Assembly: GCA_044892525.1 (NCBI GenBank)
Contig: CM097886.1
Location: 114,576,001 to 114,640,000, forward strand
From: Schmidtea polychroa
Taxonomy: Eukaryota
Length of the DNA: 64,000 bases
Direction: 5' to 3'
Below are positions 3,001 to 33,720 of this stretch, in pieces. The translations under genes and the position numbers were made by a program. The notes under the pieces are model-generated. The model was not told the origin of the DNA and ran no database searches. It saw only the letters and a program-made list of their open reading frames with translations. Every line of letters begins with the position of its first letter. Position 1 is the first letter of the stretch.

Positions 3001-3803
3001 ATTTATTCGAAATCCCGAATCAATTACTAGAACGAGGAATAACCTTCACAAATCATAAGGATGAGCAGTTATTAAAAAAGCGAATTGACACATTCGAAAA
3101 ATCAATATTCCAATTCATTACTCAGGTACGAAATAAATATTGGGGAACGGTAAGTGTGTTATACATGATGGACACGATGAACAACATCCGCGAGAATTAC
3201 CTAGATATTATTCAAATACTTACCGCAGAGGAACGAATCAATAATCCAACCGGAATGAAAATGAGAATAAGGCATGGGAAATCAAGAGAACCAAAGTCGC
3301 AAACGAACCATAAAATCGCAAATAAAGTCATCGAAACAAAATCAATGAGTATAGATCAAGGAGCAATAATATGCAAAGCGAAAGAAGTGTTCTTTGAGGA
3401 AATGCTAGAGCTACCAGATGAAGTAATATTATCAGAAATAATAAAAGCCGTACACACATACGCAAGAGATCAAACCACGGGTTTAGATATCGGGAAAATC
3501 AAAACCTTCTTACCTAGAGCATTTACGATGGTAACAAAGGATTCCAGAACACCTCTACAACAAGCAATACTGGTTGCAAAAGAAAATAGAGCAATAACGA
3601 TCGTGAGAATCCTTAGAGATATGGGCGAGGGAACCAACACGAAAAATGAACAAGGCGAAACGGCCATGATGTATGCAGCTATAACGAAAATACACCCAAA
3701 AACACTCCACATACTACATCAATCAGGATTGAGACTAGACGAAAATCAAACGAAGGGAACTCCACATTGGACTGGGCAACCATACAGCCAAACTTGGAAA
3801 TGA
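3..3803 (+). CDS. pol: Gypsy Pol (RT C-terminal part, RNase H, integrase) fused in frame to ankyrin repeats; 5' incomplete
   Basis: MPFGLTNAPASFQR and YIDD (RT); TDAS...TDHQPL (RNase H); HHCC zinc finger (HDGRLGGH...CITC); D,D35E core (SMDVVGP, TDQG, NGMTERFN); GPY motif. Ankyrin consensus follows: GDTPLH, GYTPLMIAA, KNALHHAI, RTPLQQAI, GETAMMYAA. Confidence 0.95.
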   Translation: MPFGLTNAPASFQRCMNFVTHGIKQCMVYIDDLLIYSATFEQHLEDIRNVFIRLRQWKLKLKPSKCDWSKEKVTFLGHIVSAKGKEPDPRNIEKIKTCPAPKTVTQVQEFLGLCGYYRKFIKNYAGIAKPIQELVKKDISFIWGKEQQEAFETLRDKLIEAPILVHPDFKKPFLLATDASGYAAGAILGQLDDEGKERVIGYYSRTFKKHEKNYSVTEREALAIIQAIKHFRYLLWGHEICITTDHQPLVWLGQHKEASSRLMRWAMQLQEYSPFIKFKAGRANANADCMSRFIFPDLVDPEMQRICLMVAEDLDFCQLRKDQQEDAELKQIIDYVKTGKTEVYAKDQKLKEHMDKHRHRYIIEKDWLLIMDGEKRLMCIPENRRKELLTQYHDGRLGGHMSSKKTLARMKQKYFWPTLTEDVTEWVKNCITCATRKNTGSKWKAPLTPMPVPIEPMTMISMDVVGPLPESDKGNVYILVITDFLTKFPEAFAMPDQKAKTIAKILVEEICCRYGTPKQILTDQGTNFMSEIMSEVTNYFKIAKLRTSPYHPQTNGMTERFNGTLIQMLSNYVDRHQRDWDEYINLCLMAYRMSIHASTKMSPFKLMYGRECNMPMDLEYQPPISQYMEIDDYVTKFKERMQEIWETAGLNIKFYQESYKDLHDRKKNVKQHTFQTGDWVMIETPELIPGTTRKLQRNGKGPYEILFVGETNVRVKLVNNPFTRPIYVNVARCKSIPKTATSQPEGRTLTTRSQTYRMNMMQQLAEPITGRLGIQPSEAEKIVREVKIKLPGWAKDRLDFEILGGLLTMIENYANRERTHPLLRVVKSQWPILFTITDHYGDTPLHKLMKVGNNEQILETIEAFHDCKRSTEQENNQGYTPLMIAANRGKTKDIITALLNTGSKITTQDHDRKNALHHAIEGKSTEAFTSLMELLSYEDNREVGNMYDGLLTAIKEKLTTITGVLITWRNPIKNNYMINLNEAFTRGENTLMREAMRGHHLFEIPNQLLERGITFTNHKDEQLLKKRIDTFEKSIFQFITQVRNKYWGTVSVLYMMDTMNNIRENYLDIIQILTAEERINNPTGMKMRIRHGKSREPKSQTNHKIANKVIETKSMSIDQGAIICKAKEVFFEEMLELPDEVILSEIIKAVHTYARDQTTGLDIGKIKTFLPRAFTMVTKDSRTPLQQAILVAKENRAITIVRILRDMGEGTNTKNEQGETAMMYAAITKIHPKTLHILHQSGLRLDENQTKGTPHWTGQPYSQTWK

Positions 3804-5491
3804 TCAGATTTATTTGCAAAAATGCGACAAAAGAAGAAGTTGAAAATATATGCAAAAACACATCTCAATTTCAATGGAATACGGTACGGAAAAATCTAGA
3901 AGCAATGAAATTGTTATTAACATGGAGAGTACCACAAAATAATAAATATGCGATAAATATAAACGAATTTTACGAAAACGGAGAAAACGCGATGGTAAAG
4001 AATACCCTAACTAAAGGGGGGACACCTAAAATTATCTTAATAGTATTAAATAGAGAAGACCTCAAATTCACGCAAAATCAAAACGAGCAACAACGAATAG
4101 GAAAACATCGTCGTATTCAATTGAGAGAATTAGTCAAGGAATGGAATAGAAAGAGACAAGCTGCAACGGGTAGAAAAGAGTTTGAATTCGAAGCAAAGTT
4201 AGCAAGGAACAGAGTGTTAACAGCATATCGCAGATTATTGAACGATATAAATGTCGAGGACGACATTTTAAACGACAGCGGGGGAGATAAACACGATGAC
4301 AATGACGGAAAAGGCCGAAAGGAGGATAAAGGGAAAAGAGAACCGGAAGAGGATAAACCGGAAAACAAGGATTCGGGTACGAGAAGAGAGGGAAACAGCC
4401 CGGGAACCAAGACCAAAGAGGAGGAAAAACCGAATAATGGAAAACAGAGGGTATGCCTACCGTTCACTAACAAAGAAATAGAAACAAATATGATCTTAAT
4501 GATAATCATGCTAACCATGATAGAGTTAGTAACAGCTCATGGAGGGACGAGAACGATAAAAGAAATCAAAGAAGCGGAGAATCAAGATAGCAAAGAGGAA
4601 GAACTAAAACAAGAAAAGAAAAAGCAAGCACAAGAGCAGCAGTGGGATTTAAAGGAAGAATGGGGCCTAAAGGAAAGGTGCATACTAGGAAGATGTATGT
4701 CTAGAGCGTATCAGAGATTAGTACTGATAAATGAGGACACAGAACCAATAACAGAGGTAAGAATACAAGAAGCATACCGAAATCGAGACGGGAAAAGAAT
4801 AACGAACGTAAAGGGAAAAGAGGTGCACCTAGGAAAAGGAGGTGAAGTAGTAATAACGCAACTCCAACCAAGAAAAGAACACAAAGTCTGTATTTCAAGA
4901 TTAGGACCAGGTGAGAGATGCCATCAATATGTGACGCAGCAGCAGCCCCCAAAGGAATACACGGTTTGTATCTGGAGGAACGAATCAAAAAGGGAATGCC
5001 GACGATACCCGGGGAAAAGAGGGAAGAAAAGAAAAAACAACGACGAAAAGGACGAAGGAGGAAAACACAAGAAAACCGGCGAGGAAGCCCAGGACAACTA
5101 CGTTTCAGAAGAAGAGATGGAAAAAATACAAAAGATGGCAAAGGAGGGTATGAACGAGGAAATAGCAAGAATACGAGAGATGATGAAAGGAAATGGCAAA
5201 AGAGGAAACGAGAAAAGTACAGAAGCGATATCAACATTAACAAACAAGGAAAAACCAGAGAGTATAAGCGTGAAGCAGAAGATGTGGATCAGCGGGATAA
5301 TAATAACAGGGGCATTCCTAATCATAACGGGGGGAACAATAAAAATAATTAAAGATAAACGACATCGCGGAGAACTAGAGATGACCCGAATCAGAAATTT
5401 CCAACATCGAGTGAAACGACCAAGTGATATCAAACAAGAACAGTGGGTGGAGGCCTGGAACGCTCAGCGCCCTCCAAAACCCCGTATATAG
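3746..5491 (+). CDS. Probable frameshifted continuation of Pol-ANK: one more ankyrin repeat, charged linker, internal signal-peptide-like segment, Cys/FN3-like ectodomain, TM helix, short tail
   Basis: The frame begins SNEGNSTLDWATIQPNLEMIRF (ankyrin consensus) where ORF1 loses ankyrin similarity; one extra A at 3742-3745 would join the frames. Hydrophobic MILMIIMLTMIELVTAHG at ~4490-4540; motifs ITQLQPRKEHKVCI and VTQQQPPKEYTVCI; TM MWISGIIITGAFLIITGGTIKII at ~5282-5350. Confidence 0.7.
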   Translation, partial: SNEGNSTLDWATIQPNLEMIRFICKNATKEEVENICKNTSQFQWNTVRKNLEAMKLLLTWRVPQNNKYAININEFYENGENAMVKNTLTKGGTPKIILIVLNREDLKFTQNQNEQQRIGKHRRIQLRELVKEWNRKRQAATGRKEFEFEAKLARNRVLTAYRRLLNDINVEDDILNDSGGDKHDDNDGKGRKEDKGKREPEEDKPENKDSGTRREGNSPGTKTKEEEKPNNGKQRVCLPFTNKEIETNMILMIIMLTMIELVTAHGGTRTIKEIKEAENQDSKEEELKQEKKKQAQEQQWDLKEEWGLKERCILGRCMSRAYQRLVLINEDTEPITEVRIQEAYRNRDGKRITNVKGKEVHLGKGGEVVITQLQPRKEHKVCISRLGPGERCHQYVTQQQPPKEYTVCIWRNESKRECRRYPGKRGKKRKNNDEKDEGGKHKKTGEEAQDNYVSEEEMEKIQKMAKEGMNEEIARIREMMKGNGKRGNEKSTEAISTLTNKEKPESISVKQKMWISGIIITGAFLIITGGTIKIIKDKRHRGELEMTRIRNFQHRVKRPSDIKQEQWVEAWNAQRPPKPRI

Positions 5492-5651
5492 AAAGGGATA
5501 TGACTGTATATAATTGTAAAAAGTAAGTATATCTTATGTATATAACAGTACTATATCTTTATATAAGCGCGGTATCAATATTATAAAATAACGGGGATCA
5601 TAAAATGAAATTAAATTTAGATAAGAGTTGAAAAGTGTATATAAATTAAGA

Positions 5652-5960
5652 ATGGAGCAAGGAAGTAACGAAATGAACCACAACACAGTAACCGAAGAAT
5701 TATGGAAGCAACAATGTGCCGTATTAGCACAATTAGTGTCTAATTTGCAAGAACAAGGATTGACGATGCAAAAGAACCTAATCGAGAGTATGAACAGAGG
5801 ATTTAGTTATTTGAAGATAATTGAAGACCAGAGGTTAAAAATCGAACAAATGCAAAGAGAAATAGAGAGGATAACTCAATATAGCCGAAGACAGGAAATC
5901 GAATTGGACAGAATGATGGAGGAAGCAGAACAGACAGAAATAGAAGACTGGTCAGAATGA
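5652..5960 (+). CDS. Element cargo ORF, short coiled-coil protein of unknown function
   Basis: Open frame with heptad-like E/Q/L pattern, same A-rich codon bias as pol, bounded by AT-rich spacers; ATG preceded by AG. Confidence 0.6.
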   Translation: MEQGSNEMNHNTVTEELWKQQCAVLAQLVSNLQEQGLTMQKNLIESMNRGFSYLKIIEDQRLKIEQMQREIERITQYSRRQEIELDRMMEEAEQTEIEDWSE

Positions 5961-6096
5961 CTAATGAGTAGAGAGGAGGGCGGACACGAAGCCGACTCTT
6001 CCGAACCATAAACCAAACCTAGCTTAAAATGTAAATAATTGTAAATAAAATATCGAACCTGTATCGATAAGAACTATATGTATATATAATTATAGA

Positions 6097-7485
6097 ATGG
6101 ATAAACGACAAAGAGAAGAGTTCAGAGAGATTGTCGAACAAGTCCGAAAATCTACAACGATCAGAATACACAAACATGTTATGTGCGGAATATGTGAAAA
6201 GTTGTTAAAGGAACCTCACCAAACCCAATGTGGATGCAGATTATGTAAGGAATGCATCAGTGAAGCAATAAAGAATAGACCACAGTGGTTCCCGGTGTGT
6301 AAAGAGACACTAATATCGAGTTTAGAAGACACTAACGAGGATAAAGCCGCAGTGAAAGACATGTTAAACACCAATCTGGGATGTAAAAATACCCCATGCG
6401 AATGGAAAGGAGTAATATGGAAAGTAGTGCAACATATGGGAGAATGTATGTACAGAATCGGCCAGTGTGAAAGGTGCCATAAAACCATTCGAGCAAGCGA
6501 AGAAAAAGAGCATCAAAGCCAGTGTGAAGAGAGACTAGAAAGATGTAAACATTGTGGAGAAATAGATACGTGGAAAAATCTCACCAGCAAACATCACAAT
6601 GTCCAAGAGGAAAAGGTATGTGCAGAGTTCAGTGGGGAATGCCCGAACGGATGCGAGGAAGGGAGAATAATAAAAATAGCCCAACACCTAAAGGAATGTG
6701 AAAGGAAAAGAATGACATGTGCACTCGGTAAATGGGGCTGTCAGAAACTACTACACCGAGGAGAGTTACCACATCATTTAGTAGAAAATGCTTCAACCCA
6801 CGCAGAAATGTGGTCGACTGCGTTACAAGAAAGTGAAGAGAAAGTAAAACAAATGGAGATAGAGATAACATCGTTGAAAGCGTTAGTCAAAGAACTACTA
6901 GAAGAAAGAGAAGCGTTCGAAGAAGCCCGAGCTAACATAAAGATGCAAATAAATCGTATAAAAATCAGTAATAATCAGGCCAAGGAGCTACATCGGAAAA
7001 TACAGGAAATAAATCTAAATGAGATAACCCCAACAGCACCTTATATATGGAAGATAACGGGAGTGAAAGAAAGAATACGGAAAGCCAAAACTGGGGAAGA
7101 GACAAGAATAACAAGTCCTGCATTCCATTCTTGGAAAAATGGGTACAAGATGAAAATGAGGATATATACCAACGGAGATGGAGCCGGATTGAATACACAT
7201 TTTTCGATATTTTTTCTATTATGTAAAGGGGAACGTGACGAGGTAATAGAATGGCCATTCCAGGCAAAAATCGATATCACAATGATGAATGACCAAAGCA
7301 TCCACGAACAAAGCTTCAAAACAACGGGAACCCAGCTGTGTTACCGGCGACCTACTGATGAGGAAGGAGCAGCATCAGGAGCACCCACGTTCATCTTACA
7401 GCAGAAGGTGGAAGAGATGACAAAAAACGACACAATATATATAAAAATGACAGTGAGAAGGGAAGGGAAGGGTAGAACGGAGTAA
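6097..7485 (+). CDS. traf: Intronless TRAF-family protein (RING, TRAF zinc fingers, coiled coil, MATH) inside the retrotransposon
   Basis: RING CGIC...CGCRLCKEC...FPVC; several C/H zinc fingers; coiled coil; MATH domain YIWKI...SPAF...GYKMKMRIYTNGDG...THFSIFF...EWPF...GAPTFI. 462 aa, uninterrupted. Confidence 0.95.
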   Translation: MDKRQREEFREIVEQVRKSTTIRIHKHVMCGICEKLLKEPHQTQCGCRLCKECISEAIKNRPQWFPVCKETLISSLEDTNEDKAAVKDMLNTNLGCKNTPCEWKGVIWKVVQHMGECMYRIGQCERCHKTIRASEEKEHQSQCEERLERCKHCGEIDTWKNLTSKHHNVQEEKVCAEFSGECPNGCEEGRIIKIAQHLKECERKRMTCALGKWGCQKLLHRGELPHHLVENASTHAEMWSTALQESEEKVKQMEIEITSLKALVKELLEEREAFEEARANIKMQINRIKISNNQAKELHRKIQEINLNEITPTAPYIWKITGVKERIRKAKTGEETRITSPAFHSWKNGYKMKMRIYTNGDGAGLNTHFSIFFLLCKGERDEVIEWPFQAKIDITMMNDQSIHEQSFKTTGTQLCYRRPTDEEGAASGAPTFILQQKVEEMTKNDTIYIKMTVRREGKGRTE

Positions 7486-7677
7486 CCCATCGAATAATGT
7501 TGTATATAATAACCTGTATATATCGGCGTATATAACCAATAAAATATTATATAATAATAGTATGAAAAACCCTAAATACGAAAACCCAAAAATGATGCGA
7601 AAATTTCCGAAGAACCAGTAACTAATGAATAAAATTTTTCCATAATAAAAAGATTAATCTATATCAATGATTTAGAA

Positions 7678-8733
7678 ATGACACAAGAGAGAATAACCGA
7701 AACTACGATAGCCCCAACCAATACCCACAAGACACAAATTCCCCGAGAATATAACGAAAAATGGAACAAAGTAATGTTCCAACTAACTAACCTCACCCGA
7801 AACTACATCAAAGAAGCTAGAGAAGATGAGAACAGTAAATATCAATGGCTAATCCACAATTTAAGAGAGGAAGCAGAAGCATGTAAAAGAGCATCAAAAT
7901 GGGATTCATTAGAAAATACCCGCCAAGAAGCACACAGCCACTACTTAAAGCAGCTAGTGCAGGAAGCGAGAAAGAGGCTCACTGACGAAAACGCAAAACG
8001 CGAAGCGGAAAAGCAAATAGAAGGAAGGAAAATGATGCATTTATTGGCAGAGGCCAGAAAATGGAAAAGACAAAATAGTGAAATGAAAAAAGAGATGAAA
8101 GAATTGCCCATGAGACTCGGATATGAAAGCGAACAGGGCAAATGGGAGGAAAATTTAATAATAAAGGAAGAACTGAAACGGTTGAGAAAGGTCGCCACCC
8201 GAAGCCAAACATGGCAGATGAAGGCCATGGAGTTCGAGCGACATTTGGCAATGAAATGCGACATAAGAGAGCACGAGAATGCCGCAATGGAGGAGATGAT
8301 AACCCAACAAGCAGGACGGGTTTTGGAATTAGTAAATCAGGTCGTAGAGATGAAACGAGACCTCAATGGATTACAGGGATCACTAGAACAAAGAAACATG
8401 GTCCTAGCTGGAAAAAACAAAAAATTAGAAAACGAGAGGAAAATGTATGCCGAAAATATCAAAAACTTGGAAATAGAAATTGAAAAATGGAAGGGCGACG
8501 AGAAAATCAAGGCCCTAGATAGACAAATAGAGATGAAAGACGAAGAGACAAGGTATCTCACCTACCTGCTCGACGAAGAGCTGAATATCACTCGAGCTCT
8601 AAGAGACGAAGTTAATGAATTGAGAGCTCAAATCCCCCAATATTACCTACCTTATGACCCTATTGCGATACAGTTGCATCCAGCGGTCGATAGTGATGAA
8701 GGTTATGTGGGACAGGAGGAAACCTTCGTATAA
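7678..8733 (+). CDS. Element cargo ORF, long coiled-coil protein
   Basis: 351-aa open frame, E/K/R/L-rich heptads, element-type codon bias, TTTAG just before the ATG. Confidence 0.75.
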   Translation: MTQERITETTIAPTNTHKTQIPREYNEKWNKVMFQLTNLTRNYIKEAREDENSKYQWLIHNLREEAEACKRASKWDSLENTRQEAHSHYLKQLVQEARKRLTDENAKREAEKQIEGRKMMHLLAEARKWKRQNSEMKKEMKELPMRLGYESEQGKWEENLIIKEELKRLRKVATRSQTWQMKAMEFERHLAMKCDIREHENAAMEEMITQQAGRVLELVNQVVEMKRDLNGLQGSLEQRNMVLAGKNKKLENERKMYAENIKNLEIEIEKWKGDEKIKALDRQIEMKDEETRYLTYLLDEELNITRALRDEVNELRAQIPQYYLPYDPIAIQLHPAVDSDEGYVGQEETFV

Positions 8734-8904
8734 AGGTGAATAAAAAGATAAAAACAAAAAAAATCGGGACGTATATCCCAAACAAAAAAAAATTAAAGTA
8801 TTGTAAAAGTATTCAAGGGATTGTAACCCAAACTATTAAATTTTATATAAATGTATAAGTATAAGTCGTACTATAGCGCACCATTAACTGTACATATTAT
8901 AGAT

Positions 8905-9594
8905 ATGAAAATCGAGGAAATGATAGAAATCACGAGTGACGTGGAAGAAGGAGAAATTGTAACAGAAACAACAGAAACACAAACGCTAGAAGCAGAGTTG
9001 CGAGCAGAGAAGTGTGAAAACGAGAGACTGGTAAACAAATACATAGAAGATCGAAAAATAATAAAGATACTAAAGAAAGAATGCAGAGTGCTAGGGGAAG
9101 TAAAAAGAGAAACAGAAGAGGAAAACGAATGGCTGCAAGAACAACGAAAACGAGGGAGAAATTGGGAGAAGATTGCGGAAGAATTATGGCAAGAAAGGGC
9201 CAGTAGAAAGGCAGACGAAGTGATTAGCGATTATTGGAAAACCGAGGCACGGAAACACCAAGAAAGTTTGAAGGAGTTACAACTCCAACTGCACCAAAAA
9301 CAAAAGGAATGCGAGATAATGAAAAGAATGAACAGCAAATACCACGAAATCGACGACGGAGAAGACGAGGAAAGGGGAAATGATTTCTTACAAATACTAA
9401 ACCATAAAAACCTGGAAAGAGCAACGCAGGAAATAAAAGTGTTAAAAGGGAAAATAAAGTTCCTAGAACAACAGATAGACGAAAGAGATAAGCAACTAGA
9501 AGTACTGCCAGAATTGAGAAAACGGGTAATAAAAGCGGAAACGGAAGTGATGAGAGCGTCTCAGAAAGCCCGTAAAAAGAAATCCCGACCATAA
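8905..9594 (+). CDS. Element cargo ORF, coiled-coil protein with basic C-terminus
   Basis: Open frame (track start 8851; ATG 8905 after TATAG preferred), E/K-rich heptads, ends RKKKSRP. Confidence 0.7.
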   Translation: MKIEEMIEITSDVEEGEIVTETTETQTLEAELRAEKCENERLVNKYIEDRKIIKILKKECRVLGEVKRETEEENEWLQEQRKRGRNWEKIAEELWQERASRKADEVISDYWKTEARKHQESLKELQLQLHQKQKECEIMKRMNSKYHEIDDGEDEERGNDFLQILNHKNLERATQEIKVLKGKIKFLEQQIDERDKQLEVLPELRKRVIKAETEVMRASQKARKKKSRP

Positions 9595-9649
9595 ATTAAA
9601 AAGGGATAATTGATGTAAATAAATGTATATAAAATGTTCGCATATTAGT

Positions 9650-10303
9650 ATGTGGCCGGAAGCAACCCTGATGACCCTAATAATGATAACAATAAACGGA
9701 ATGCCCATGCGGCAGTCAGCCCCAAACCCCTGGGAGAACCCCGAGAAACAGCAAAGCCGATTAATCAAACTGAAAAATGAAAGAAAACCCTCCAACAATA
9801 TCCCGAAACAATGCTGGAACAAAGCCGTCTGGCAAAAGACCCAAAGACAACTGAATCTGCAATCTCAAAGAATCGAACAACTTGAAACCCTCCTACATGA
9901 ACAAACCACCCAACAGTCTCTGAAAGAAACCCTCGTAAAGAAAGAAATAAAAGAAAGTCAAGCCCTATTCTATGTTACCATTAGTGAAACCATCCTCATC
10001 TGCGCGCTAATCATCTGGAAGACATATGATATCTATCGAGCATGGAACAGAACCCAACCACTATCCGAGAGACCCAAAAGAAAGAACCTACGATTCCGAA
10101 ACGTACATAAACAAGCAGTACATTGTCAACAACCGGACCCACTCGACCAAATACAACAAAATCTGTCTTCTAATCAAATACCCGTTACAATCCAGCTCTC
10201 CACAGTAACAACTTCAACCAACCCTTCAAGCCAGAATCCCAGAGATCCCCAAAAGGTAGTTAACCGAAACAGTAGTAACATGTCGAACATTGAAATCCCG
10301 TGA
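9650..10303 (+). CDS. Element cargo ORF, predicted type I membrane protein (signal peptide, coiled-coil ectodomain, TM, S/T/P/Q tail)
   Basis: MWPEATLMTLIMITING N-terminus; TM ALFYVTISETILICALIIW; low-complexity tail. Confidence 0.65.
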   Translation: MWPEATLMTLIMITINGMPMRQSAPNPWENPEKQQSRLIKLKNERKPSNNIPKQCWNKAVWQKTQRQLNLQSQRIEQLETLLHEQTTQQSLKETLVKKEIKESQALFYVTISETILICALIIWKTYDIYRAWNRTQPLSERPKRKNLRFRNVHKQAVHCQQPDPLDQIQQNLSSNQIPVTIQLSTVTTSTNPSSQNPRDPQKVVNRNSSNMSNIEIP

Positions 10304-10854
10304 CAGTAATTTGATGTATATAATTCCGGTCACCCTAAGTGGCCACTGCTTGCTTATATTTGTCTTATTATCTGTTTAATTAAAGTATTAGTCAGTTAAT
10401 TTGTTTTTATGTCTGTACGTATTTTGATTGTGGAAGTTTTGTGTTATAACAACAGAGGTATGATTAGAATGTATGTCATTATGCGAATTGCGGGACGCAA
10501 TTTTGATGGGTCCCCGAGTGATTTGTTGGGCTGAATCGAAGGGTAGCTGGGAAATTAGGTCGAATTTAACTAAAGTAAAAATAAGAAATAAAATAAATAG
10601 ATTGACGAATAAAATAGAATAGAACATAAGAAAAACAATAATTAGAAATAAGAATTAAAACAAAAAAAAATATGAAAATAAGAAAAATTAAAATAGGACA
10701 ATAGAATGACAGAAAATAACGCAAAATATAATAAATAATAAGGAAATTAAGGAAAATAAATAAAAACATAATTTTAATAAAGAAAATAAGAAGAAATAAC
10801 TCTAAAACAAGGAAAATAAATTAAATTAATAAAATTAAGCGGTACTCAATTCTG

Positions 10855-10920
10855 ATTGGTCCGCGCAAACAAAAAATTAATATATAAGCAGGCATTAAAA
10901 TCATAATAATTACAGTTAAT
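10855..10920 (+). promoter_or_regulatory. LTR promoter: inverted CCAAT (ATTGG 10855-10859), TATA (TATATAAG 10881-10888), Inr-like CAGTT at ~10913
   Basis: ATTGG and TATATAAG occur in the same order in the LTRs at 24823-24860 (-) and 33575-33600 (-). Confidence 0.75.
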
Positions 10921-10936
10921 CTAACCACCTCAATAG

Positions 10937-10983
10937 GTAAGTAAAGTTTAAAATAATCACAGTTAATCTAACCACCTCAATAG
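10937..10983 (+). other. Predicted 47-nt LTR mini-intron (GTAAGT...CTAAC...ATAG) whose last 25 nt duplicate exon 1
   Basis: Direct repeat ACAGTTAATCTAACCACCTCAATAG at 10912-10936 and 10959-10983; the first copy is followed by GTAAGT. Confidence 0.7.
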
Positions 10984-13215
10984 ATCCATTCTACGACGAA
11001 ACCGCAATTAAACAATCAATCCACAGCAACTCACGAGGACTATTCCGGAATCCAAGAAATTTCAGCTGAATCTAGATAATTTCGAACATTTATTACTTCG
11101 ACACAGTACCCCTTTTCGACTCAGCCTATACCTCTATTAAACACTCGGTAAGGATCTTTTGATTTCATAATTTGAATTTTAAAGTAATAGTTATGCATAT
11201 GATTTAATTATAATTTTAATTTAAAGAACTTGTTTTCTTTTCGTTTGATTTCGAATACTTGGTGTAATTTAACGATTTAGTATTTAACAATAAATGATTT
11301 GCTATGAATGATTGATTTCTAGGAATTATTGACTTTTATGAACTGTTTTAATGAGTTATTATTTAATGCCATTCAAATTTTCGAGAAACGTGGCGTTGAT
11401 ATACTCTAGTGTCATGGTGTGAGGTGCCTTCGGGAGCTCCACCGGTGGGCCTAGGGTATTTCAATCACGCAGCTGATTCGGGCCGTAATGTGGGGGCTTC
11501 CTCACGGGTCCGTCGCTGAAGGTGCGACTAAATCCTATAGGAAAATGTTGCCAGAAAATTGGTAGTCGTATAGCGATGGAAAATAGAGATGTAGGAAGAA
11601 ACGTTCAGAGAGTTTTTATGTATTCGCGCAGTGATTGAGGGTGTCACACTATCGTCTCAAGATATCGTTTCTACTAAGCCCAAATTTCCTCTATCGCTCT
11701 AAAGCTCTATGTAGGTTGCTCATCGAGAGTCGTTCAAATGCTATAGGTGACATATCTTCGATGCTCGTATGTTTCACTCGAAATTTATACCTACTATGTT
11801 TTATGGCCTTCCGTGTTATTATTTTCCTCGTCTACGTGTTCTCTCAAAGATGAAGCTGCAGGGGATTACAGAAAATAAGTAGTCTCGGATGAGCGTTAGA
11901 ATTCCATGAACAAGTTGTCTCGCATAAAATTTTGAATTACGTAAAACGGGTTACTTCAACTATTTTTGAATTGTATAAAATGATTTACTTCAATTGATTT
12001 TAGAATTATATAAAGGGATTAACTTCCACAAATTTTTCTAATTACATAAACCGGTTAGTGCCAAATAATCTCAAGAGTAAAACGAAATCAAATCGAGTCA
12101 AAAAATATATTTTTTTTTACAAACCAATCTAACATGATAATCCTTACCTAGTAAATATAAATTACCCGTGTTTCATGGAGTTGATAATCCAGCGAGGATA
12201 GGTAGGAAATCTCCAAAATATCGGGAACGGATCAATAAACCGCATTTGAGGAGTTGAGAAGTTCCCCCTGGGGGGCAAATTATATCCAACTCTTGCGATA
12301 CCGAGAATCATAATTTTTCCAGCATTTCCGTGAGAATTAGTATGACATCATCATGAGCAAGGAAATGTGAGCATCTGTGCAGTGGGTTGATCGAGATAGT
12401 AGCCAGAGAACATGCCAGCATGTAAACAGTTGAGGGCATCAGTTAGTCATTAGGAGTGGAATTAAGTATGAGAAATAAAAACTTGCATACGTCACCCGTT
12501 TTCAGACACACTACAGTAGCTAATCACGGTGTGTAGATTCACACCGACTTGTACTCATAACAAACCAGACCGGACGTGTCAGCTGGAATTTTTGGGTTAT
12601 CAAATTAAATCACTCGCAGTCATTAGATTCCCACTGGTCGGAACTAATAGCCAACTGTCAGACTGATTTTGTCTACTTAGTAGGATTAATTTAGTTATTA
12701 TCTCATGTTGAATAATTTGTCGCCTATCATAAATAAATAATTAAAAATTTTTTTTTAATGTCTTCCCGTTCATCATAAATGAACTAATTAAGAATAATTT
12801 ATGGATTTCTATTCACCCTAAATAATTAATCTAAAATTAATCGACCTACGTACAGGATACATTCATCGAAACGATTTGTTAGGAAAAGTCGGCAATGTAA
12901 TTCAACTCTCTTCAAACGTTAATTACTAACTTCAAGCGATTTAGATAACCGTAGTTTCCTCGACCTAGAATTCCTCTCACCAGTAGTAATACCTCTCCTT
13001 ACTTGTGCAAAATCGTGCTTGACTGATTTATTTTCTTATAATTAATGACCCAAAGGGAACGAGGACCCATAGCGCAGTTGAATTTCTTTGGCTGATACAC
13101 CCATTCTTGTCTATGAAACCAACTATGATCAGTAAAATATAAATGTGACCAGACGACGACCTTCTAATTGATTTGATTTGTTGTTCATTTCCATCTTTTC
13201 TTGCAGTCACCCAAG

Positions 13216-14064
13216 ATGTTACCCAATTCCAAGACCATTCTCAGACCTTGTTTCTCTTGTTCAGACAAGAATTCAATCATCAAGGATCTGCAGGCCCAAA
13301 TCGGAAAGTACAAGAGAAAAATAGACGAGTTAGAGGGGACATGGTTTAGTCCTACCCAGATGAAAGAGGCTCAGAAGAAGCTGCACCGCAGCGAGCACTG
13401 TCGAGATGCGCTAATTTCCGAAAGTCGGGCGCAGAGAAGCCTAATAAAGGAGCAGTCGGAGGCGCTGCACAAGTTATACGTCCAAGCAGCAACCACTAGG
13501 AGAATCGCGAAGATCCCAATTAATGAAGCCAGTAATCTTTTTCCAGCGCACCACGAGATCTCGGGCGGGCCTTCATCTCCACCTGGGAAGTCCTGCCATG
13601 GGTGCGTGGAGACCGAGCTCTCTCCCAGTGGTCCAGACGTTGTATTCACCGGAACTAATAAAGTGCAGCCAAACACCGCATCGTCCTCAATCGTGCAAAC
13701 CCCAACAGCTTCAAAACCTAAACGTCGGCAACTGTCGCGCGCCGAACGAAAACGAAAGCAACGAGAGCGGGCTTCCATCAAACGGATTCTACCATCAACC
13801 GTCACCCCAGTCGACGGCAACAGCAATCCAATAGTAGTCGATCTAACGACCGGAATCTCAGGGCGAGTCATCTCCGCCGCCGGGGTAACATGGGAAGAAA
13901 ACGCCGCCGAATTCTTTGATTTAAACGAGTTACTCGCCGACTCGGAGTGGGAAAAATGGGAATTGCTCCGTAAACTGGCCTCATCTTCTAGAGAGACCTG
14001 GACATCTTCTGACATCATTGTTTACCCTTGTGTTTTCCCTATTCTTAGGAATTTTGGTATATAA
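13216..14064 (+). CDS. LTR-encoded 282-aa protein (CxxC + coiled coil, Arg/Lys-rich motif, acidic-aromatic C-terminus), predicted spliced
   Basis: Intact ORF. Polypyrimidine-CAG acceptor at 13204-13206, donor GGTAAG at 11147-11152, AATAAA at 14096-14101; all are conserved in the solo LTR. Homologues at 21762-22505 and 30791-31646. Confidence 0.8.
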   Translation: MLPNSKTILRPCFSCSDKNSIIKDLQAQIGKYKRKIDELEGTWFSPTQMKEAQKKLHRSEHCRDALISESRAQRSLIKEQSEALHKLYVQAATTRRIAKIPINEASNLFPAHHEISGGPSSPPGKSCHGCVETELSPSGPDVVFTGTNKVQPNTASSSIVQTPTASKPKRRQLSRAERKRKQRERASIKRILPSTVTPVDGNSNPIVVDLTTGISGRVISAAGVTWEENAAEFFDLNELLADSEWEKWELLRKLASSSRETWTSSDIIVYPCVFPILRNFGI

Positions 14065-14520
14065 GTGTTCAATGTACTTGTATAATAATTCTGACAATAA
14101 ACCATTCTCGTCTATATATGTGTTTTTGTTTATCTTAAAATAGTCGATCTGAAATTGGTGAATAACATTGAGAGTCGTAGAAAATGAGGAGCATTAGTCA
14201 GTTGGCAACCCCAGCTAGGAACCTTGCGATGGGGTGATGGAATGATTAGACGTAAGTCCTTCTATCGGCAGTCAGGGTTGGGAAGTCGAGGCCTCAGTAA
14301 GGAGTAGTCCGAAGGAGCTGGCTCACCTGCTTACTGGCGTCTCGCCGGCATAGCACAGTTCCAACGTGAAGCAATTCACGGGTGCTATGTTGGAATGTAG
14401 GTTATGTGCGGGTCCTGCTTGGCGATGACAAAACGAAGGACGAGCGAAATCGATGTGGGCATTCATCCTCTAGACTGAAAGCTGCACTAAAAGGGGTCAT
14501 CCGAGTAGCTACCCGCAACA

Positions 14521-17500
14521 GTATGGACTCGATAAACATAATTTAATATCAAGTTTCGTTGTGAATTCTCTCATCAATCCTATTTCAAACGCATTTCCAC
14601 AATCAACTCTTACCTCATTTAGGCATCCAAATTTTAAAATCCATTTTTCTAAAATCGTTTTCTTTATTGTTTCTTCATCTTGTCTTGTTATAGCTATCAA
14701 GTATTGATACTTTCTTTACTAGTCTATTATACCCAATATCTACTTCTTACGTCATTTTGTTTTTTGCATTGGTCCACATATATCCACGAATATAATTTCG
14801 AACATTTCGTTTGATTCTAGTTTTTTAGTGGTTCCTTCGTTGTAATTGTTATAGCCTTGGTTTTTTGACAAATCTCACAACTTCGAATAGTTTTCTGAAT
14901 CTGACTTCACAGGACTTTCCCAATATACCTATCATTCGTATAATCAGCTATCTTTTTCGACCCTAGCATGACACAATAGTATTTCCTTTATGATTTCTTG
15001 TATCTCGTTTTCTGGTATCATCGTTTTCTTTCGTGCTTCTTCTTTCAAGTTTCCTGGTTGATTGGTGCTTCTCCCTTCTTCTCTGAATGAGTCTAGTAAT
15101 CTAGTTTTAATCTTTCTTTTCTTAGCTTCTTTGTGGGCCATTTGACATTGAACACACGCTTCACATTTAGGTCTGGACACCATGTCTGCATTTTGGTGAT
15201 TAACACCTTTTCTATATTCAGCGATTATATCCAAACTGCTCAAATAATTGATCCAGGTTTGGAATTGTGAAGTATTTGGCTTCTTGGTTGTCATCATAAA
15301 CGTGATCGCCTTGTGGTCTGTCCTTAGCGTGAATCTTCTTCCGTAGAGATAGTGCTTAAAATGAATACAAAAATAATATACCACCAATTGTTCCTTCATT
15401 GTAATTCAATATCCTTTTTCATGGTTCGTCATCGAGTGTGATCCATACGCAATTACTCTCTCCTTTTCATCTTTATTTATTTGTGAAAGCTCTGCTCCAA
15501 TGTTATCAAAACTGGCATCAGTATCTAAAATGAACTCCTTTCTCAGATCCGAAAAGCATAAGATCGGTGCCGTTGTGAGTGCTAACTTCAATCCCTCGAA
15601 TACGTTATTCGTTCCTTTTGTCCATTCCACTCTTGTGTTACTCGGACCGATACATAATTGTTCTGACATCCTTGCTTTCTTTTCATACTCACTGATGGAT
15701 CTTCTATAATAATTGCAAATGCTTAGAAAACTTCGATGTTTCTTTACGCAACTTGGCTTCCCAAAGTTTTGTATAGCCTGAATCTTAGAAGGATCGGTCT
15801 GTACTCCTTTTTTGCTGATTATGTGTTCTAAGAATCTGATTTCTTTCTGTATTATTTGACACTTTTCTGAATTAATCTTTAGTCCTGCTTCTTCTATGGC
15901 TTATAATACTTTACTGAGTATTGTATAATGTTTTTCTTTATTGCTCGAATAAATCAGAATGTCATCCAAATACACCATTGCTCCATTTATTTTGCCTATT
16001 ACCTTTGTCATCATTTCCTGGAAAGTACCTGGTGCTGCAGCAATTCCGAACTGCATTCTATTGAAACAGTATTGCTCTTTCTTTGTTGAGAATGCTGTTT
16101 TCTCTTGCGATTCTTCGTCTAACTCCACTTGATAATATGCATTACCAAGATCGATTGAGCTAAAATAAACGGACACTCTGAACAAATCTAACATCTCGTC
16201 TATGTTTGGCATTGGGAATGCCTGCCTCTCTGTTACTGCGTTCAGCTGCCCGAAATCCAAGCATAGCCTAATATCTTTTTTATCTTTATTTCACACGCAG
16301 ATTAACAGCGTGTTCTATGGGGAGTTGCATTTCCGTATAATCCGTTTTCGTACAAATTTTGTAATGCTTCTTCAATTTTTGTTTCCAAATTCAATGGTTG
16401 ACTATATGGTTTTATGTTTATTGATTCACCTCTTGTTATTATCTTATGTTTTACTAAATGCGTTCGACCCACATCCCATTTATCAGCCATAAACACGTTT
16501 CCACTGTTCGTTATTATTTCCTTTAATTTACTATCCTCATTAATCTTAAAATGTGCCAACGTTCGCTTCAACCTTTCTCCATCCTTTATTTGTCTGATGA
16601 CTTTTGGTTCAATGTTACAAATATAGTTCTTGTCTTTTTCATTTGATTCGATATCTTTCCTTTTTACAAGCCAATATCCAAATGTTTCTTGTAATCCTAT
16701 TCCTCCAATCATCTCTGGGGTCACTTTCTCCGCCACAATGAATCTAACTTCCCTGGAAATATCTCCGATAGACACTTTAACCTTTGTTATTTCAATAGTC
16801 GCTATCGTACTTTCGTTTGCACATCGTAACTTATTGTCGCTTCTCATCAACTGTTGTCCTCGTAATTTGTTAAAACAGTTCACACTCATTACGTTTATTC
16901 GTGCTCAGGTATCCAATAAACAGTCGAAAATTTCTCCATTCATCATAACTGTTACACAGGGTCTTCCCGTAGCTTGTTTTACACTATTTCTACCTACCCG
17001 TTTCAATTGTTCCAGTTCTTTCCACTTCCTCGTCAAACTTTTCTCTCCTTAGGAACCTGTATACTTTCTCACTTCCCTTTCCTACATTCTCCCACTTTTC
17101 TACCCCTTGAGGATATTCCATCCACTTTTCTGTTAGTATATGGCTCCAACCAACTCCTCTACTGGCGGAGCCCTGTTGTTTTGGTACGTCCTACTAAAAT
17201 TATCTTCATTTGTCTCAACGCACGATTCCATTTCCCCTTCTTCTTCGATTCCTTTAATCCGGCTGTATCTGTTTCCTGTCGGTCTTTGTTTCTCTATCGT
17301 TTTCTTGTAACTCGACTTTGAATAACATTCTTCAGATATATGACCATTTTTGTTGAATCTTTTACACCGTATTTCTTGACATAACCTTCTTATATGACCT
17401 TTGCCACAACCAAAACATTTTGGCACTTTTTTATCTGGACAATTCCTACTTATATGTCCGCTTCTGTGACACGTCCAGCACTCTATCTTATTTCTTACTG

Positions 17501-18175
17501 GACAGTCTATTTTAGTGTGGCCTGTTTTGTGGCATAGCCAGCACTCTGGTTCTTCTCGTCGCCTTCCTTCTTCTCTTTCATCTCTTTGCTTGTACTGTCC
17601 TCTTCTCTGTGGATCCTGATAGACCACTCTTGCATAACTTTTCATAGCGTTTATCTGATCTCTCTGTTTGTCAACTTTATTCATCATAATTAATGTTTCC
17701 TTTATTTCCTCTGTGCTTTTTATTTTTACCAATATTACTTCTTTCTCAACTTCTTTATTCTCAAACAACTTGTTGGCAAGGTCCTCCATTTTTTTAAATA
17801 TGTTTCAATCTCTTCGCCTCTTCTTTTATAATTCAATAAACTTTCCATATCATTTATTACATCTCTTTCTTAATCAAATGCCATTCGTAACTTGACTTGA
17901 AATCCCTCTGCTCTTTTAACTGTCTTAGCATATTTCTCCAATAGATCCTCGTCGATCATGCATGCAGTCAATCTTTTCTGTTCTTTTTTATTGATGCCTT
18001 TAGCATCGAAATAAATCTGGCATCTTCTAATGAATTTTTCTAAACTTTCACCTTGCCAGAACACCTTTGGCAATAATCTTTCAGTAATCACGTCAGTGTT
18101 TACCGCTGCCACCATATTATAATTCTCATCCGTTACAACATTAACATCTGGTTCCAAATCACTAAATAACTCCAT
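14521..18175 (-). mobile_element. Decayed conventional Ty3/gypsy element (gag with CCHC knuckles, protease, RT, RNase H, integrase), interrupted in IN by the giant element
   Basis: CWLCHKTGH and CWTCHRSGH knuckles; LLDT*A protease site; YLDD; DTDASF; fragmented by stops and frameshifts. Confidence 0.9.
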
Positions 18176-18616: not shown

Positions 18617-19216
18617 ATGGCATATTCCAGATCTTTTGGAAACGTTTGGACACTTTTAAAAGAAAACGCATTTCAACAAGTCGACATATCTGATGATATT
18701 TTGTGCTTAATTTGTAAGAAAATTATGGTCAATTCACAAAATGGACCATGTGGTTGCAGATACTGTTTGGAATGCATAACAAATCATCTAAATGAAAACA
18801 ATCATCAATGCCCTGGCACTACAGAACTTTGTGAAAATGAACAATTAACTCTTGATAATTTGCAGACTGATAATGCTATTAATGTGAAAATTTCAAGAAC
18901 TGTCGTAAATTGTCCATTTCAAAATTGCCATTATCAAAATGAACTTAAACTTATTGGAGACCACATAATGGCGTGTAATTTCCGTGAAATTAATTGCCCA
19001 CTTACCGAAATCGGATGTAAAAAAATGAATTTGACCAGTGATTATATGCTAAATCATTTTAAATCGGAAATCGTTTCTCATTCAACATTATTTTTGGAAT
19101 GTTTCGATAATATGAAAAATGAAATTGAATCTCAATCAAAAATTCTAAAAGAAATGAAAGAAGAAAACCAATTAATGAATGAGAAAATTTTAGCACTTGA
19201 ACAAGCAAATCAATCG
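18617..19216 (+). CDS. traf: Host TRAF gene, coding exon 1 (RING, zinc finger, start of coiled coil)
   Basis: CLIC...CGCRYCLEC...CPG RING; CPFQNC and CPLTEIGC fingers; phase-0 GTAAAT donor at 19217; upstream TTTCAGCAG acceptor near 18588. Confidence 0.85.
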
Positions 19217-19675
19217 GTAAATTTTAATTAGACACATTTTCATTCGTTAAAATTTTAATAATTTTATTTTGTAAATGCTAACTAATTTTTGAGTGATCTA
19301 TTTAAAGCATGTAAAAATTGGTTTAAACGAGATATTTAAAATTTATATAATTAAATAATTATTCAATAAAAATAATTTTAAATAAAAATTTATAATTTTA
19401 TTTAAACAAACAATTGTTCCATAATATTTGTGTGATATTGGAATTTTTTTGATTTATTTTAAAATTTAAATAAGGGAAAAATGCAATTTTAATCAAATGC
19501 AATATATTACATTTATATTTACTATTTTTTTAAATATTCATATTTAATTATATTTATTTACATTTAATTTGTAAGATTTTTAATTTCCTTATTTTAAATA
19601 TGTAATTATTTGAGTTTCTAGTTTTTAATTGAGAATGTTTTGTGGGCTTCTTCTTACATATAGCTTTTAACTCTG

Positions 19676-21198: not shown

Positions 21199-24100
21199 TG
21201 TTGGCGGGTAGCTACTCGGATGACCTTCTTTAGTACCGCTTTTAGTCTAGAGGATGAATGCCCCCATCAATTACACTTGTCTTTATCCCGGTCATCGCTG
21301 AGCAGGGCCCGTACATAACCTATACTCCAACATAGCACCCGTGAATCGCTTCACGTTGGAACTGTGCTATGTCGGCGAGACGCCAGTAAGCAGGTGAGCC
21401 ATCTCCTTCGGACTACTCCTTACTGAGGCCTCGACTTCCTAACCCTGACTGCCGATAGAAGGACTTACGTCTTTTATCCCGTCACCTATCGCCATGTTTC
21501 TAACTGGGATTGCCAATTGACTAATGCTCCTATTTTTTGCGACTCTCAATGCTATTTACCAATTTCGAATCAACTGTCTTAAAATAAACACAAAAAAAAA
21601 ACGTATGCAGACAAAAATGGTTTATTGTGAGAATTTTTATACACATATATTACAAACTTATACCACCCAATTTACAAGAACAAGGAAACACAAAGATAGA
21701 AAATGTTATCAGTAGATGTTCAAGTCCCTCTAGAGGATGAAGCCATTTTACGGGGAAGTTCTCATTTTTCCCACTCCGAGTCGGCGAGTAACTCGTTTAA
21801 ATCGAAGAATTCGGCGGCATTTTCTTCCCATGACACCCCGGTAGCGGAGATGACTCGCCCTGCGATTCCGGTTGTTAGATCGACGACTGCTGAATTACTG
21901 CTGCCCTCGACTGGGGTGGCGATTGATGGTAAAATCTGTTTGACGGAAGCCCGCTCGCGTTGCTTTCGTTTTCGTTCGGCGCGTGACAATTGCCGACGTT
22001 TAGGTTTTGAAGCGGTCGGTATTTGCACTCTTGAGGAAGATGCGGTGCTTGACGGTACCTTACTAGTTCCGGTGAATACGACGTCTTGACTTCTGGGAGA
22101 GAGCTCGGTCTCCACGCACCCATGGCAGGACTTTCCGACTGGAGATGAAGACCCGCCAGAGATATCATGATGTGCTGGGAAAAGATTACTGGCTTCATTA
22201 ATTGGGATCTTCGCGATCTTCCTTGTAGTTGCTGCCTGGACGTATGATTTGTGTAGCGCCTCCGACTGCTCTTTTATTAGGCTCCTCTGCGCCCGACTCT
22301 CCGAAATTAACGCGTCTCGACAGTGCTCGCTTCGGTGCAGCTTCTTCTGAGCCTCTTTCATCTGGGTGGGACTAAACCGTGTCCCCTCTAACTCATCTAT
22401 TTTTCTTTTATACTTCCCGATTTGGGCCTGGAGATCTTTGATGATCGAATTCTTGTCGGAGCAAGAAAAACAAGGTCTGAGAATGGTTGTGGAATTGGGC
22501 AACATTTTGAGTGACTGTGAAGAAAAATGAAAAATGAAGATAGATTAAATCAACGAGAGTGTCGCCATCTGATCACACTCATACTCTACTGATCATAGAC
22601 AAAATTATGGGTTTACCGGTCAACAAGATTCTACTGCACGATGGATCCTCATACCTTTTGGGTCTTTAATTATAAGAAGATAAATCGATCAAGCCAGATT
22701 TCGCACAAGGAAAGGGAGACATTACCACTAGTGAGAGAAATTCTCGGTCGATGAAAATTATTATTTATTTAATCCGCTTGAAGTCACTAATTCACGTTTG
22801 CAGAGAATCGGGTGAAATTGTTGATTTTTCCCCCCAAATGAGTGATTTCGATGCGTGTATCATGTACCGGGGTCGATTAAGTACTTACGGTTAAGGGGGG
22901 GTCCATAATTTCCTTTAAATAGTTCGTTTATGATGAACGGAAAGTTATTTAATTTTTCGATTATTTATTTGTGATAACGGAAAATTGTATCGATGTGAGA
23001 AAGTAGCAGAGCAAATCCTACTAAGTAGATAAGCAAAATATCAGCCTGATGGTTGACTATCCATCCCGAGCGATGAAATCTAATGCCGGTCAGTGGTTTA
23101 ATTAGATAACGGAAAACTCCATCTGACACGTTCGGCCTGATTTTCTATGGGTAAAGGTTAGTGTAACTTTACACACTGCGATTGGCTGCTATAGTGTGTT
23201 TGAACATGTGTGACGCATGCGAGTTGCGATTTCACACACTTATCTCTACTCGTAACTACTAATGGAGGTTCTTCAATGTTTGCATGCTGGCATATTCTCT
23301 GGTTACTATCTACTGCATAATTGCTCACAATTCCCCTGCACATGCTGATGGCCTAATAATTCTCACGGAAACATTGGAAGAAATTACGATTCTCTATGTC
23401 GTAAATGTTGGATATAATTTGCTCCAAGGGTGGATTTCTTTTTAACCTCTCAAATGCGATTTATCGATCTGTTCCTGAAATTCTGGAGATTTTCTACCTA
23501 TCCCCGCTGGATTTCCAACTTCATGAAATACGGGAATTTTACATTTAAGTAACAAGACTCATCAGGCTAACTTAAAAAAAAATATATTTTTCTTGGCTCG
23601 ACTTAGTTGCATTTTTCATTTCAAATTATTTGATGCCAATCATTTATGTAATTACGAAAATTAGTTGAAGTAAATATTTTTATATAATTCTAAAAAATTA
23701 ATTGAAGTAAATTATTTTATGTAATTCAAAATTTTATTTGGAACAAACTCGTTTTATGAAATTCTAATAATTATCTGAAATAAATCATTTTACGTGGTTC
23801 TACAATCCATTCGTAAACAGTCATTTTGAATAATCCTAATAATTATCTGAAGCAATCTACTTTGAGCTTCCTTGCAACTATGTCTTTAAGAGAACTTTTA
23901 GATGAAAGAAATAACAGTTCAAAAGGTCATAGGCCGAAAATTTGTAGGAGTAGGTTCCGAGCGCAAAGCATGAACATCGAAGATATATCACATATAGCCC
24001 CACTAATGTCTGAACGATTGTTTGACACACAACTTACATCGATGATAGAGAAAATTTGGCTTAGTAGAAACGATATCTGGAGACGATGGTGTGACGCCCT

Positions 24101-33400: not shown

Positions 33401-33720
33401 TACATTTTCTCCTTTCTTTGTTCGCTGTGATGCTAAAATTTGAAGGATGATTGTTGAACTGGTTCCACAATTGGATCTGTGTAAGAGTTTGGTAGATTAA
33501 TTAAATTGAAATTTACAATAAGATTTTACCCGTGTAAGAGTTTGGTAGATTAAGGGAATTGATCAAGTGATTTTCTTATATAGTAATTTTTGTCCAATCA
33601 GGACTTAGCTCGTGTGTAATATGGTGTTTTTCTCTTATTTTGTGCCTTTTTAATTGTTTTTCTGAGTTAATTATCTATTTCTTTTGGTTAATTTATTAAA
33701 TAGTTTAATCTTTATTTTTC
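30500..33720 (-). repeat. LTR of a third, more distant giant-gypsy family (5' end deleted, 3' end not resolved)
   Basis: Same order as the 10524 LTR: A-rich U3, CTGATTGG, TATATAAG, duplicated exon/mini-intron followed by ATCC, then TTCTAG-T-ATG of a homologous ORF. Confidence 0.7.
30791..31646 (-). pseudogene. Diverged homologue of the LTR-encoded ORF with one 1-nt frameshift near 31410
   Basis: RPCISCADKN...KKRIDTLESTWFSSSQMKE...EHCRD matches RPCFSCSDKN...KRKIDELEGTWFSPTQMKE...EHCRD. Removing one C gives TIKNQSEALYKVY, matching LIKEQSEALHKLY. The C-terminal half is different and acidic. Confidence 0.8.

Follow-up and report, generated by a model that had tools for sequence, protein, structure and literature searches.

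The long terminal repeats (LTRs) of a 28.6-kb Burro-like gypsy element of Schmidtea polychroa contain a real protein-coding gene of 247 codons, which is situated behind the promoter predicted in the same LTR and, judged from genomic sequence, is likely made from spliced RNA begun at that promoter. LTRs usually count as control regions without coding content, apart from known exceptions that lie in U3. In the window, by which we mean the whole stretch of 64,000 nucleotides analysed here, the gene and its family stop position occupy 13216-13959 (+), within the 3' LTR of the element (10524-14520, +; 3,997 nt).

The first 14.5 kb of the window is the 3' half of this element. Its 5' LTR is found at C2:114,561,970, 24.6 kb upstream of the 3' LTR, and the pair is 99.675% identical over 3,999 nt; the element is flanked by a 4-bp target duplication, and behind the 5' LTR follows a primer-binding site (PBS) that we take to resemble tRNA-Pro. 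Paired TG..CA LTRs, target duplication, PBS and the order protease-RT-RNase H-integrase place it among Ty3/gypsy elements, and its size of about 30 kb, the order gag-fusion glycoprotein-protease, and the ankyrin and MATH/TRAF domains (PF24664, PF12796, PF21355) are Burro-like. An RT-RNase H-integrase-ankyrin ORF, a TRAF ORF and four more accessory ORFs lie at 3-10303 (+), while the gag CCHC knuckles, a mononegavirus-type fusion glycoprotein and the protease are located upstream of the window in the same element. BIR and BCL2-like domains gave no match in the scanned ORFs of this copy, the reading frames of which are fragmented. In place of a purine tract, a conserved motif of the CCCC(G)GAGTGATT type stands before the 3' LTR (10512-10523 in the window; also L123, L126 and L138), and this motif was found in both of the LTR lineages described below. 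Between the 5' LTR and gag we further noted a small RING-finger ORF (L032:268-783) and an 81-nt tandem repeat (L032, ~1340-1650). TRAF-like RING/zinc-finger and MATH fragments occur outside the TRAF-carrying element on both flanks (18617-19231, 53111-53656, and L031 at window positions of ~-15644 and ~-16451), and we regard them as host TRAF genes or their remnants. Elsewhere in the window, 14944-17789 and 57848-59535 (-) are presumably fragments of smaller gypsy elements; they are joined by an ORF at 45079-45984, probably the terminal part of an RT of the Penelope type with GIY-YIG, and by a presumed pogo-like DDE transposase at 46302-47351.

A search of the 781-Mb genome returned at least 138 matches to the window ORF. 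The initial annotation had described a 282-aa ORF at 13216-14064; the coordinates are correct, but the length is not that of the family, whose proteins measure 247-249 aa. Among the 30 best of the at least 138 genome copies, 29 stop at codon 248, the element's own 5' LTR included, and read-through to 282 aa occurs in the window copy only; the longer form was therefore rejected as the family protein, and 13960-14064 (+) is a read-through tail private to the window copy and 3' UTR in the others. We fetched 40 LTR copies, picked across the identity range of the matches. The frame is intact in 38 of them (one has an early stop, one a frameshift), and 37 of these 38 end at codon 248, the last one three codons sooner. 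The upstream part is homologous in 36 of the 40, the other four carrying unrelated upstream DNA.

Two further copies lie in the window. A solo LTR at 21199-25184 (-), with a 4-bp target duplication and all signals, holds an intact 247-aa ORF (21762-22505). It had been called near-identical; intact it is, but identity amounts to 90% over 247 aa against sister copies and 87% over 273 aa, with a dN of 0.054 and a dS of 0.375. The proposal that every solo LTR is a self-contained gene holds insofar as this one contains every part of the unit; its expression is a prediction. The third copy, placed at 30791-31646 by the initial annotation, is homologous over the N-terminal part (aa 10-115), but the homology ends at ~31298 after a frameshift at ~31420. 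It belongs to a damaged LTR of a divergent lineage (31298-33600, -) that retains the promoter, a 53-nt mini-intron with its repeat, and the N-terminal half of the gene. The segment 30791-31297 was rejected as part of the gene because it matches an unrelated repeat ORF; this repeat, with open frames of up to ~840 aa (L034-L056, e.g. L040:70-2145), stands where the third copy's 3' half would be. Next to the damaged LTR lies a fragment of a second Burro-like element (33725-36253, -), whose fusion-glycoprotein ORF abuts the LTR, a junction that suggests a large internal deletion.

Intact members of the third copy's lineage are present elsewhere in the genome and share 34-38% protein identity with the window's lineage. 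The N-terminus of the third copy, used as query, gave at least 150 matches, of which 20 were fetched for long open frames and 19 were used. In two young pairs, L123/L124 and L125/L126, the ORF is found in both LTRs, which are 4.2-4.3 kb long and agree at 99.5-99.8%, and the ends and PBS are the same. Another two pairs proved to be uninformative tandem duplications, and 4 of 20 further divergent-lineage loci have no recognisable start motif. The coding regions of L088 and L089 look chimeric, with an N-terminal half like that of L077 and a C-terminal half like that of L090, which implies that recombination occurs inside the gene.

Purifying selection, for which the initial annotation had proposed a dN/dS check, acts on this frame in both lineages. 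We obtained a dN/dS of 0.24 (2dlnL 448 against neutrality) for the 38 intact copies and of 0.13 (2dlnL 1,321) for the 19 divergent ones, values that are approximate, since selecting for open frames favours intact copies and since the copies share ancestry, with recombination among some of them. By segment, the window's lineage shows 0.11 in the N-terminal domain, 0.10 in the basic helix, the most constrained part of the gene, 0.23 in the tail (aa 216-247) and 0.38-0.48 in the linkers. Four other frames give 1.8-3.4 across both lineages (1.8-2.3 in the window's). For the antisense frame with common third positions the value is 0.27-0.32 (0.32 in the window's lineage), but only 1 of 38 and 0 of 19 copies keep it open; a 215-aa antisense ORF was rejected on the former count. 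Relative to the window LTR, coding-region indels in the 40 copies number six in frame and one frameshifting, versus 279 and 1,496 in the intron, the intron counts being inflated by the four copies with unrelated upstream DNA. That the ORF goes untranslated and owes its presence to recent amplification or to conserved cis elements would accord with the lack of any homologue in our searches and of an observed RNA junction, yet frame-specific dN/dS values of 0.10-0.24, indels that are almost exclusively in frame, and a frame kept across 35% identity largely refute this explanation, which we consider very improbable.

The position of the gene downstream of an LTR promoter was borne out, as the ORF lies 2.3 kb behind the sole conserved CCAAT/TATA arrangement, from which the start site is predicted. 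This promoter consists of a reverse CCAAT box and a TATA box (10855-10888, +), kept in 36 of the 40 copies and present in the divergent lineage as well. Predicted exon 1 (10912-10936, +) would begin ~25 nt behind the TATA box and ends in AG/GTAAGT; it is followed by a 47-nt GT..AG mini-intron (10937-10983, +), a predicted non-coding exon 2 (10984-11147, +) and a large intron of 2,059 nt with conserved ends (11148-13206, +). The donor G/GT at 11148, the acceptor AG at 13205-6 and the AATAAA at 14096 named by the initial annotation are all present in the window. Among the 36 copies with a homologous upstream part, 35 have the donor G/GTAA, and a YAG acceptor within 10 nt of the ATG is found in 40 of 40 fetched copies. 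The leader is nearly cleared of ATG, with 6 in 8,200 nt versus 264 in intron starts of equal length (35 related copies). AATAAA follows the stop in 37 of the 40 copies (14096-14101, +, in the window) and in none of seven young divergent-lineage copies, where variants stand instead.

The strongest evidence for splicing is genomic and comes from a single divergent-lineage element at C1:144.997-145.026 Mb (2 of 40 scored matches), which lacks the 2.15-kb intron at the predicted sites in both LTRs. Its exon 2 equals the 127 nt of its sisters, one letter off at the junction, with the ATG directly after; both LTRs carry one and the same junction, of exactly the spliced length, and the element retains the target duplication, PBS and mini-intron. 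The simplest cause would be reverse transcription of an RNA that had been spliced at the predicted sites and ran past the PBS. It should be noted that the junction is one letter off and represents a single event in a lineage other than the window's, in which no intron-less copy matched the pattern, and that a deletion with each end within 2 nt of a splice site would be a formal, though less simple, alternative to splicing. The 3' LTR of this element has since received a 1-kb insertion in its U3-side part (L138:3010-4010, oriented). Together with their conservation, the intron-less element supports the donor/acceptor pair as probable splice sites. In public sequencing runs, contigs of run X6, presumed to be RNA, span the coding region of sister copy L095 end to end and also cover the stem-loop and promoter bin; the L095 intron (2102-3725) has no X6 contigs, whereas the DNA run X1 covers all 30 bins and runs X5 and X7 have four and zero contigs, respectively. 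No RNA junction at the predicted GT..AG sites occurs in the public run contigs on L095, which counts neither for nor against splicing.

The same element bears on whether the frame might instead be an exon or encode a structural protein, either spliced or read through into gag or contributing a component of the particle. If spliced RNA can continue past the PBS, as the loss of the intron indicates, such continuation is conceivable, and a conserved donor-like GT at 14252, behind the ORF, as well as the young divergent-lineage copies without a canonical AATAAA after the stop, would suit it. Against it stand the nearly invariant stop at codon 248 (37 of 38 intact copies), the ATG directly behind the acceptor and the leader cleared of ATG, and we hold this reading to be improbable.

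The last 25 nt of the mini-intron repeat exon 1. Across copies the mini-intron measures 45-53 nt, follows a first exon of ~25 nt and has a 3' end that is a copy of that exon; the two are 99.6% identical within an LTR, as against 69.4% between 14 exon-1 types. A strict promoter pattern matched 37 of 79 stretches, 36 of which have the repeat, its second copy ending in AG in all 36. A looser pattern found the mini-intron repeat in 13 more divergent-lineage LTRs, among them the third window copy, and two copies have a single repeat unit. We propose that strong-stop DNA from a spliced 5' end would anneal to an unspliced 3' R and, by overwriting the end of the intron, restore the mini-intron. Overwriting by strand transfer would fix the start site and put the mini-intron in R, and it predicts what the intron-less element displays, namely retention of the mini-intron. 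Slippage or conversion is the alternative origin of the homogenised repeat.

A candidate for the end of R is a second AATAAA (11289-11294, +), 141 nt behind the large donor. Of 27 diverged copies, 24 retain such a signal 132-160 nt behind this donor, and it is also present behind the donor in 8 of 8 young divergent-lineage LTRs that have promoter and intron; the other intronic AATAAA are kept in 0, 0 and 19 of the 27, and the last of these, at 12732, weakens the argument. If R ends at the AATAAA behind the donor, the gene lies in U5; otherwise R would measure 3.2 kb. We rejected an alternative layout in which a promoter at 14057 is followed by a short R immediately ahead of 14096, because the TATA-like word there is not conserved. 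Behind the AATAAA of the gene follows the most conserved block of the LTR (14224-14374, 88-95%), in which the donor-like GT at 14252 matches at seven of nine positions; this block may serve splicing to internal genes or suppression of the upstream poly(A) site.

Within the large intron, conservation peaks at a twin stem-loop at 11389-11518 (+), a candidate response or packaging element, which is 89-94% conserved in an intron of 60-70%. Its folding z is -3.2 and 8 of 50 pairs show compensatory change (18 related copies); Rfam has no family for it and returned one chance snoRNA match. In the divergent lineage a different long stem occupies the same place, with z of -3.4 to -7.1 in eight LTRs (one further motif match has +1.3) and compensatory change in 10 of 33 pairs (five sequences). 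The stem-loops of the two lineages are unrelated in sequence. The initial annotation had overlooked this structure, along with the mini-intron (10937-10983) and the AATAAA at 11289.

The protein comprises an N-terminal domain (aa 12-113; 13249-13554, +) with a CxxC, two long helices, EHCRD and FPxHH, an Arg/Lys-rich helix (aa 167-187; 13714-13776, +; predicted helix 175-191) and an acidic-hydrophobic C-terminal tail (aa 225-247; 13888-13956, +), the last 20 aa having a net charge of -4 to -7 in 20 of 25 proteins. The Arg/Lys-rich motif pointed out by the initial annotation is thus present, constrained (dN/dS 0.10) and predicted to be helical, and the divergent lineage has an equivalent. The invariant residues include C12, C15, W43, C62, R63 and H113, and metal binding by the invariant Cys and His is possible. 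AlphaFold2 on 25 sequences gave a mean pLDDT of 61, rising to 82-95 over aa 21-90, and modelled a confident helical hairpin (13-41, 46-99), the basic helix at 175-191 and, weakly, a helix at the C-terminus, the linkers being disordered. The structural check suggested earlier, by AlphaFold and Foldseek, thus yielded a confident hairpin but no specific fold match: Foldseek against viral and PDB structures gave nothing at E<=0.001, and a wide VIA search had a best Z of 8.9, generic for helical hairpins, and barely covered aa 105-247. By sequence, searches for homologues with the single protein and with the alignment, at lengths of 130-494 aa, found no match; 1.84 billion representatives contained no homologue at E<=0.001 and metagenome contigs none, Pfam returned only a sub-threshold coiled-coil Rootletin, the best E among PDB sequences was 0.12, and the ESM Atlas reached 0.83 at best, with recognition below a useful level. 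None of the family, sequence and fold searches related the protein to Rev, Rex or CERV, and Foldseek and VIA recognised no DNA-binding fold. A scan with eight consensus classes of leucine-rich CRM1 export signal placed the best pattern in 11 of 25 proteins, inside the coiled coil, and none is conserved.

Genomic RNA, which would begin at the same promoter, must keep a 2-kb intron with good splice sites, one that can be removed by splicing, as the intron-less element indicates. As the parts fit the logic of a protein made from spliced RNA that acts on a structure in unspliced RNA, we put first, tentatively and at somewhat less than an even chance, the reading that the selected 247-aa gene in both LTRs encodes a Rev/CERV-like regulator of unspliced RNA. 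Transcription would start ~25 nt behind the TATA box, and default splicing would produce a small mRNA for the 247-aa protein, which would then bind the stem-loop in the retained intron and allow unspliced genomic RNA to escape splicing and be exported. The basic helix would provide RNA binding and nuclear import, the N-terminal helical hairpin oligomerisation, and the acidic tail recruitment of a host factor. The AATAAA behind the donor would mark the end of R, under U1 control of the foamy type, and the gene would fall in U5. Against this reading count the lack of a conserved export signal and of any match to Rev, Rex or CERV in our searches, the unrelated sequences of the two lineages' stem-loops and the acidic-hydrophobic tail, which resembles an activation domain more; retroviral packaging or dimer signals, moreover, also lie just behind the donor, as the stem-loop does.

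The missing export signal and the acidic tail are the reasons for which we retain, as a less probable but still serious possibility, a trans-activator of the Tas/Tat/Tax type. Here the N-terminus would dimerise, the basic helix would take the protein into the nucleus and bind nucleic acid, and coactivators would be drawn to the LTR promoter by the acidic tail, with the stem-loop acting as a packaging or dimer signal or as a TAR-like tether. The tail is kept across lineages of 34-38% identity and a helix is predicted at the C-terminus; the U3-side block of the LTR, conserved at 80-92%, offers possible binding sites, the export signal is not conserved, and foamy virus Tas, made from an early transcript, activates its LTR, according to the available part of a review (PMC12789967). 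Trans-activation, however, leaves unexplained how a leader with a 2-kb spliceable intron stays unspliced, and no DNA-binding fold was recognised. Less likely again is a role of the protein against host silencing (PIWI/piRNA, heterochromatin) or in some other manipulation of the host, with solo LTRs supplying it in trans. Small basic proteins are typical silencing suppressors and the element carries host-pathway cargo (TRAF, ankyrin), and planarian Burro RNA rises on smedwi-2 RNAi, as an accessible section of PMC8532177 reports; nevertheless, dN/dS below 0.5 in every segment bears no arms-race signature, and positive evidence is lacking.

As to novelty, the element type, spliced regulators and U3-encoded genes are known already; what is new is the position of the gene behind a promoter within the LTR. 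The literature covered here, partly in extract and with the original Burro paper and its supplement outside its scope (these may describe LTR transcripts), contains no gene in Burro LTRs, no spliced gene behind a gypsy-LTR promoter and no exon-1 repeat in an LTR intron, and the available portions of PMC11410931, PMC8532177 and PMC13524379 have nothing on LTR genes. A spliced gene behind a promoter of the same LTR outlasts solo-LTR formation, and hence the commonest decay product of the element could go on supplying a trans-acting regulator. In a bolder and rather doubtful reading, an endogenous virus of the gypsy type would have transferred an entire Rev/RRE-like switch to the R/U5 part of its LTR, namely the promoter, both introns, a response element, the gene for an orphan regulator and a poly(A) site, so that each of hundreds of solo LTRs would be a stand-alone regulator gene and the mini-intron would be kept by exon-1 overwriting at every strand transfer. 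The spliced LTR gene would in any case offer an orphan example, open to experiment, of a gypsy element regulated in the manner of complex retroviruses, and RNAi is routine in the animals concerned; the mini-intron repeat and the intron-less element may show how introns in terminal repeats persist or vanish during reverse transcription.

Among known systems, the element itself is most like Burro/GYPSM1, which, in the part of a review available to us (PMC6431247), shares the size of ~30 kb, multi-kb LTRs, CCHC gag, a mononegavirus-type fusion protein located between gag and protease, ankyrin and MATH/TRAF. BIR and BCL2-like domains in one giant polyprotein are a Burro feature there; here, by contrast, TRAF is a separate ORF behind pol, and BIR and BCL2 are unmatched in the scanned ORFs. 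The same portion of that review describes no LTR gene, intron or stem-loop. The initial annotation had compared the gene to MMTV sag and HIV nef; the comparison holds for coding inside an LTR but is loose, since sag and nef, as described in the sections at hand of PMC12789967, are U3 genes whose expression starts at promoters farther upstream and crosses the 3' LTR, whereas the present gene lies in R or U5, behind the predicted promoter of its own LTR and thus not upstream of the start. Like foamy viruses, the element has a major donor upstream of the LTR poly(A) signal and, presumptively, an early regulatory protein (PMC3694450, PMC12789967; both in part); U1 binding at the donor suppresses cleavage in those viruses (PMC3694450, in part), but Tas is encoded outside the LTR, with an internal promoter, and U1 control of polyadenylation is demonstrated there and inferred here. 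Conserved extra ORFs without homologues, present in most copies of a family, are likewise known from plant gypsy elements (PMC7264820, in excerpt). Rev, Rex and Rem are made from spliced RNA and act on structure in unspliced RNA (PMC12789967, same sections), and Rev/RRE, Rex and Rem/RmRE would resemble the present system in the small gene, here probably spliced, the Arg-rich helix, here a putative RNA-binding one, and the structured RNA, here a candidate response element, on the unspliced transcript; they differ in that no leucine-rich export signal is conserved here and that gene and candidate element sit together in each LTR, and the searches found no homology. Finally, CERV of Cer1, a gypsy element of C. 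elegans, is made from a spliced mRNA, has a zipper, a KRKK and a Cys-rich part, and is needed for export of genomic RNA, so that both cases would present a novel accessory protein of a gypsy element, made from spliced mRNA (probably so here), with a zipper, a putative basic import signal and a Cys-rich part, and a genomic RNA that retains usable splice sites (PMC10309623, as far as the excerpt extends).
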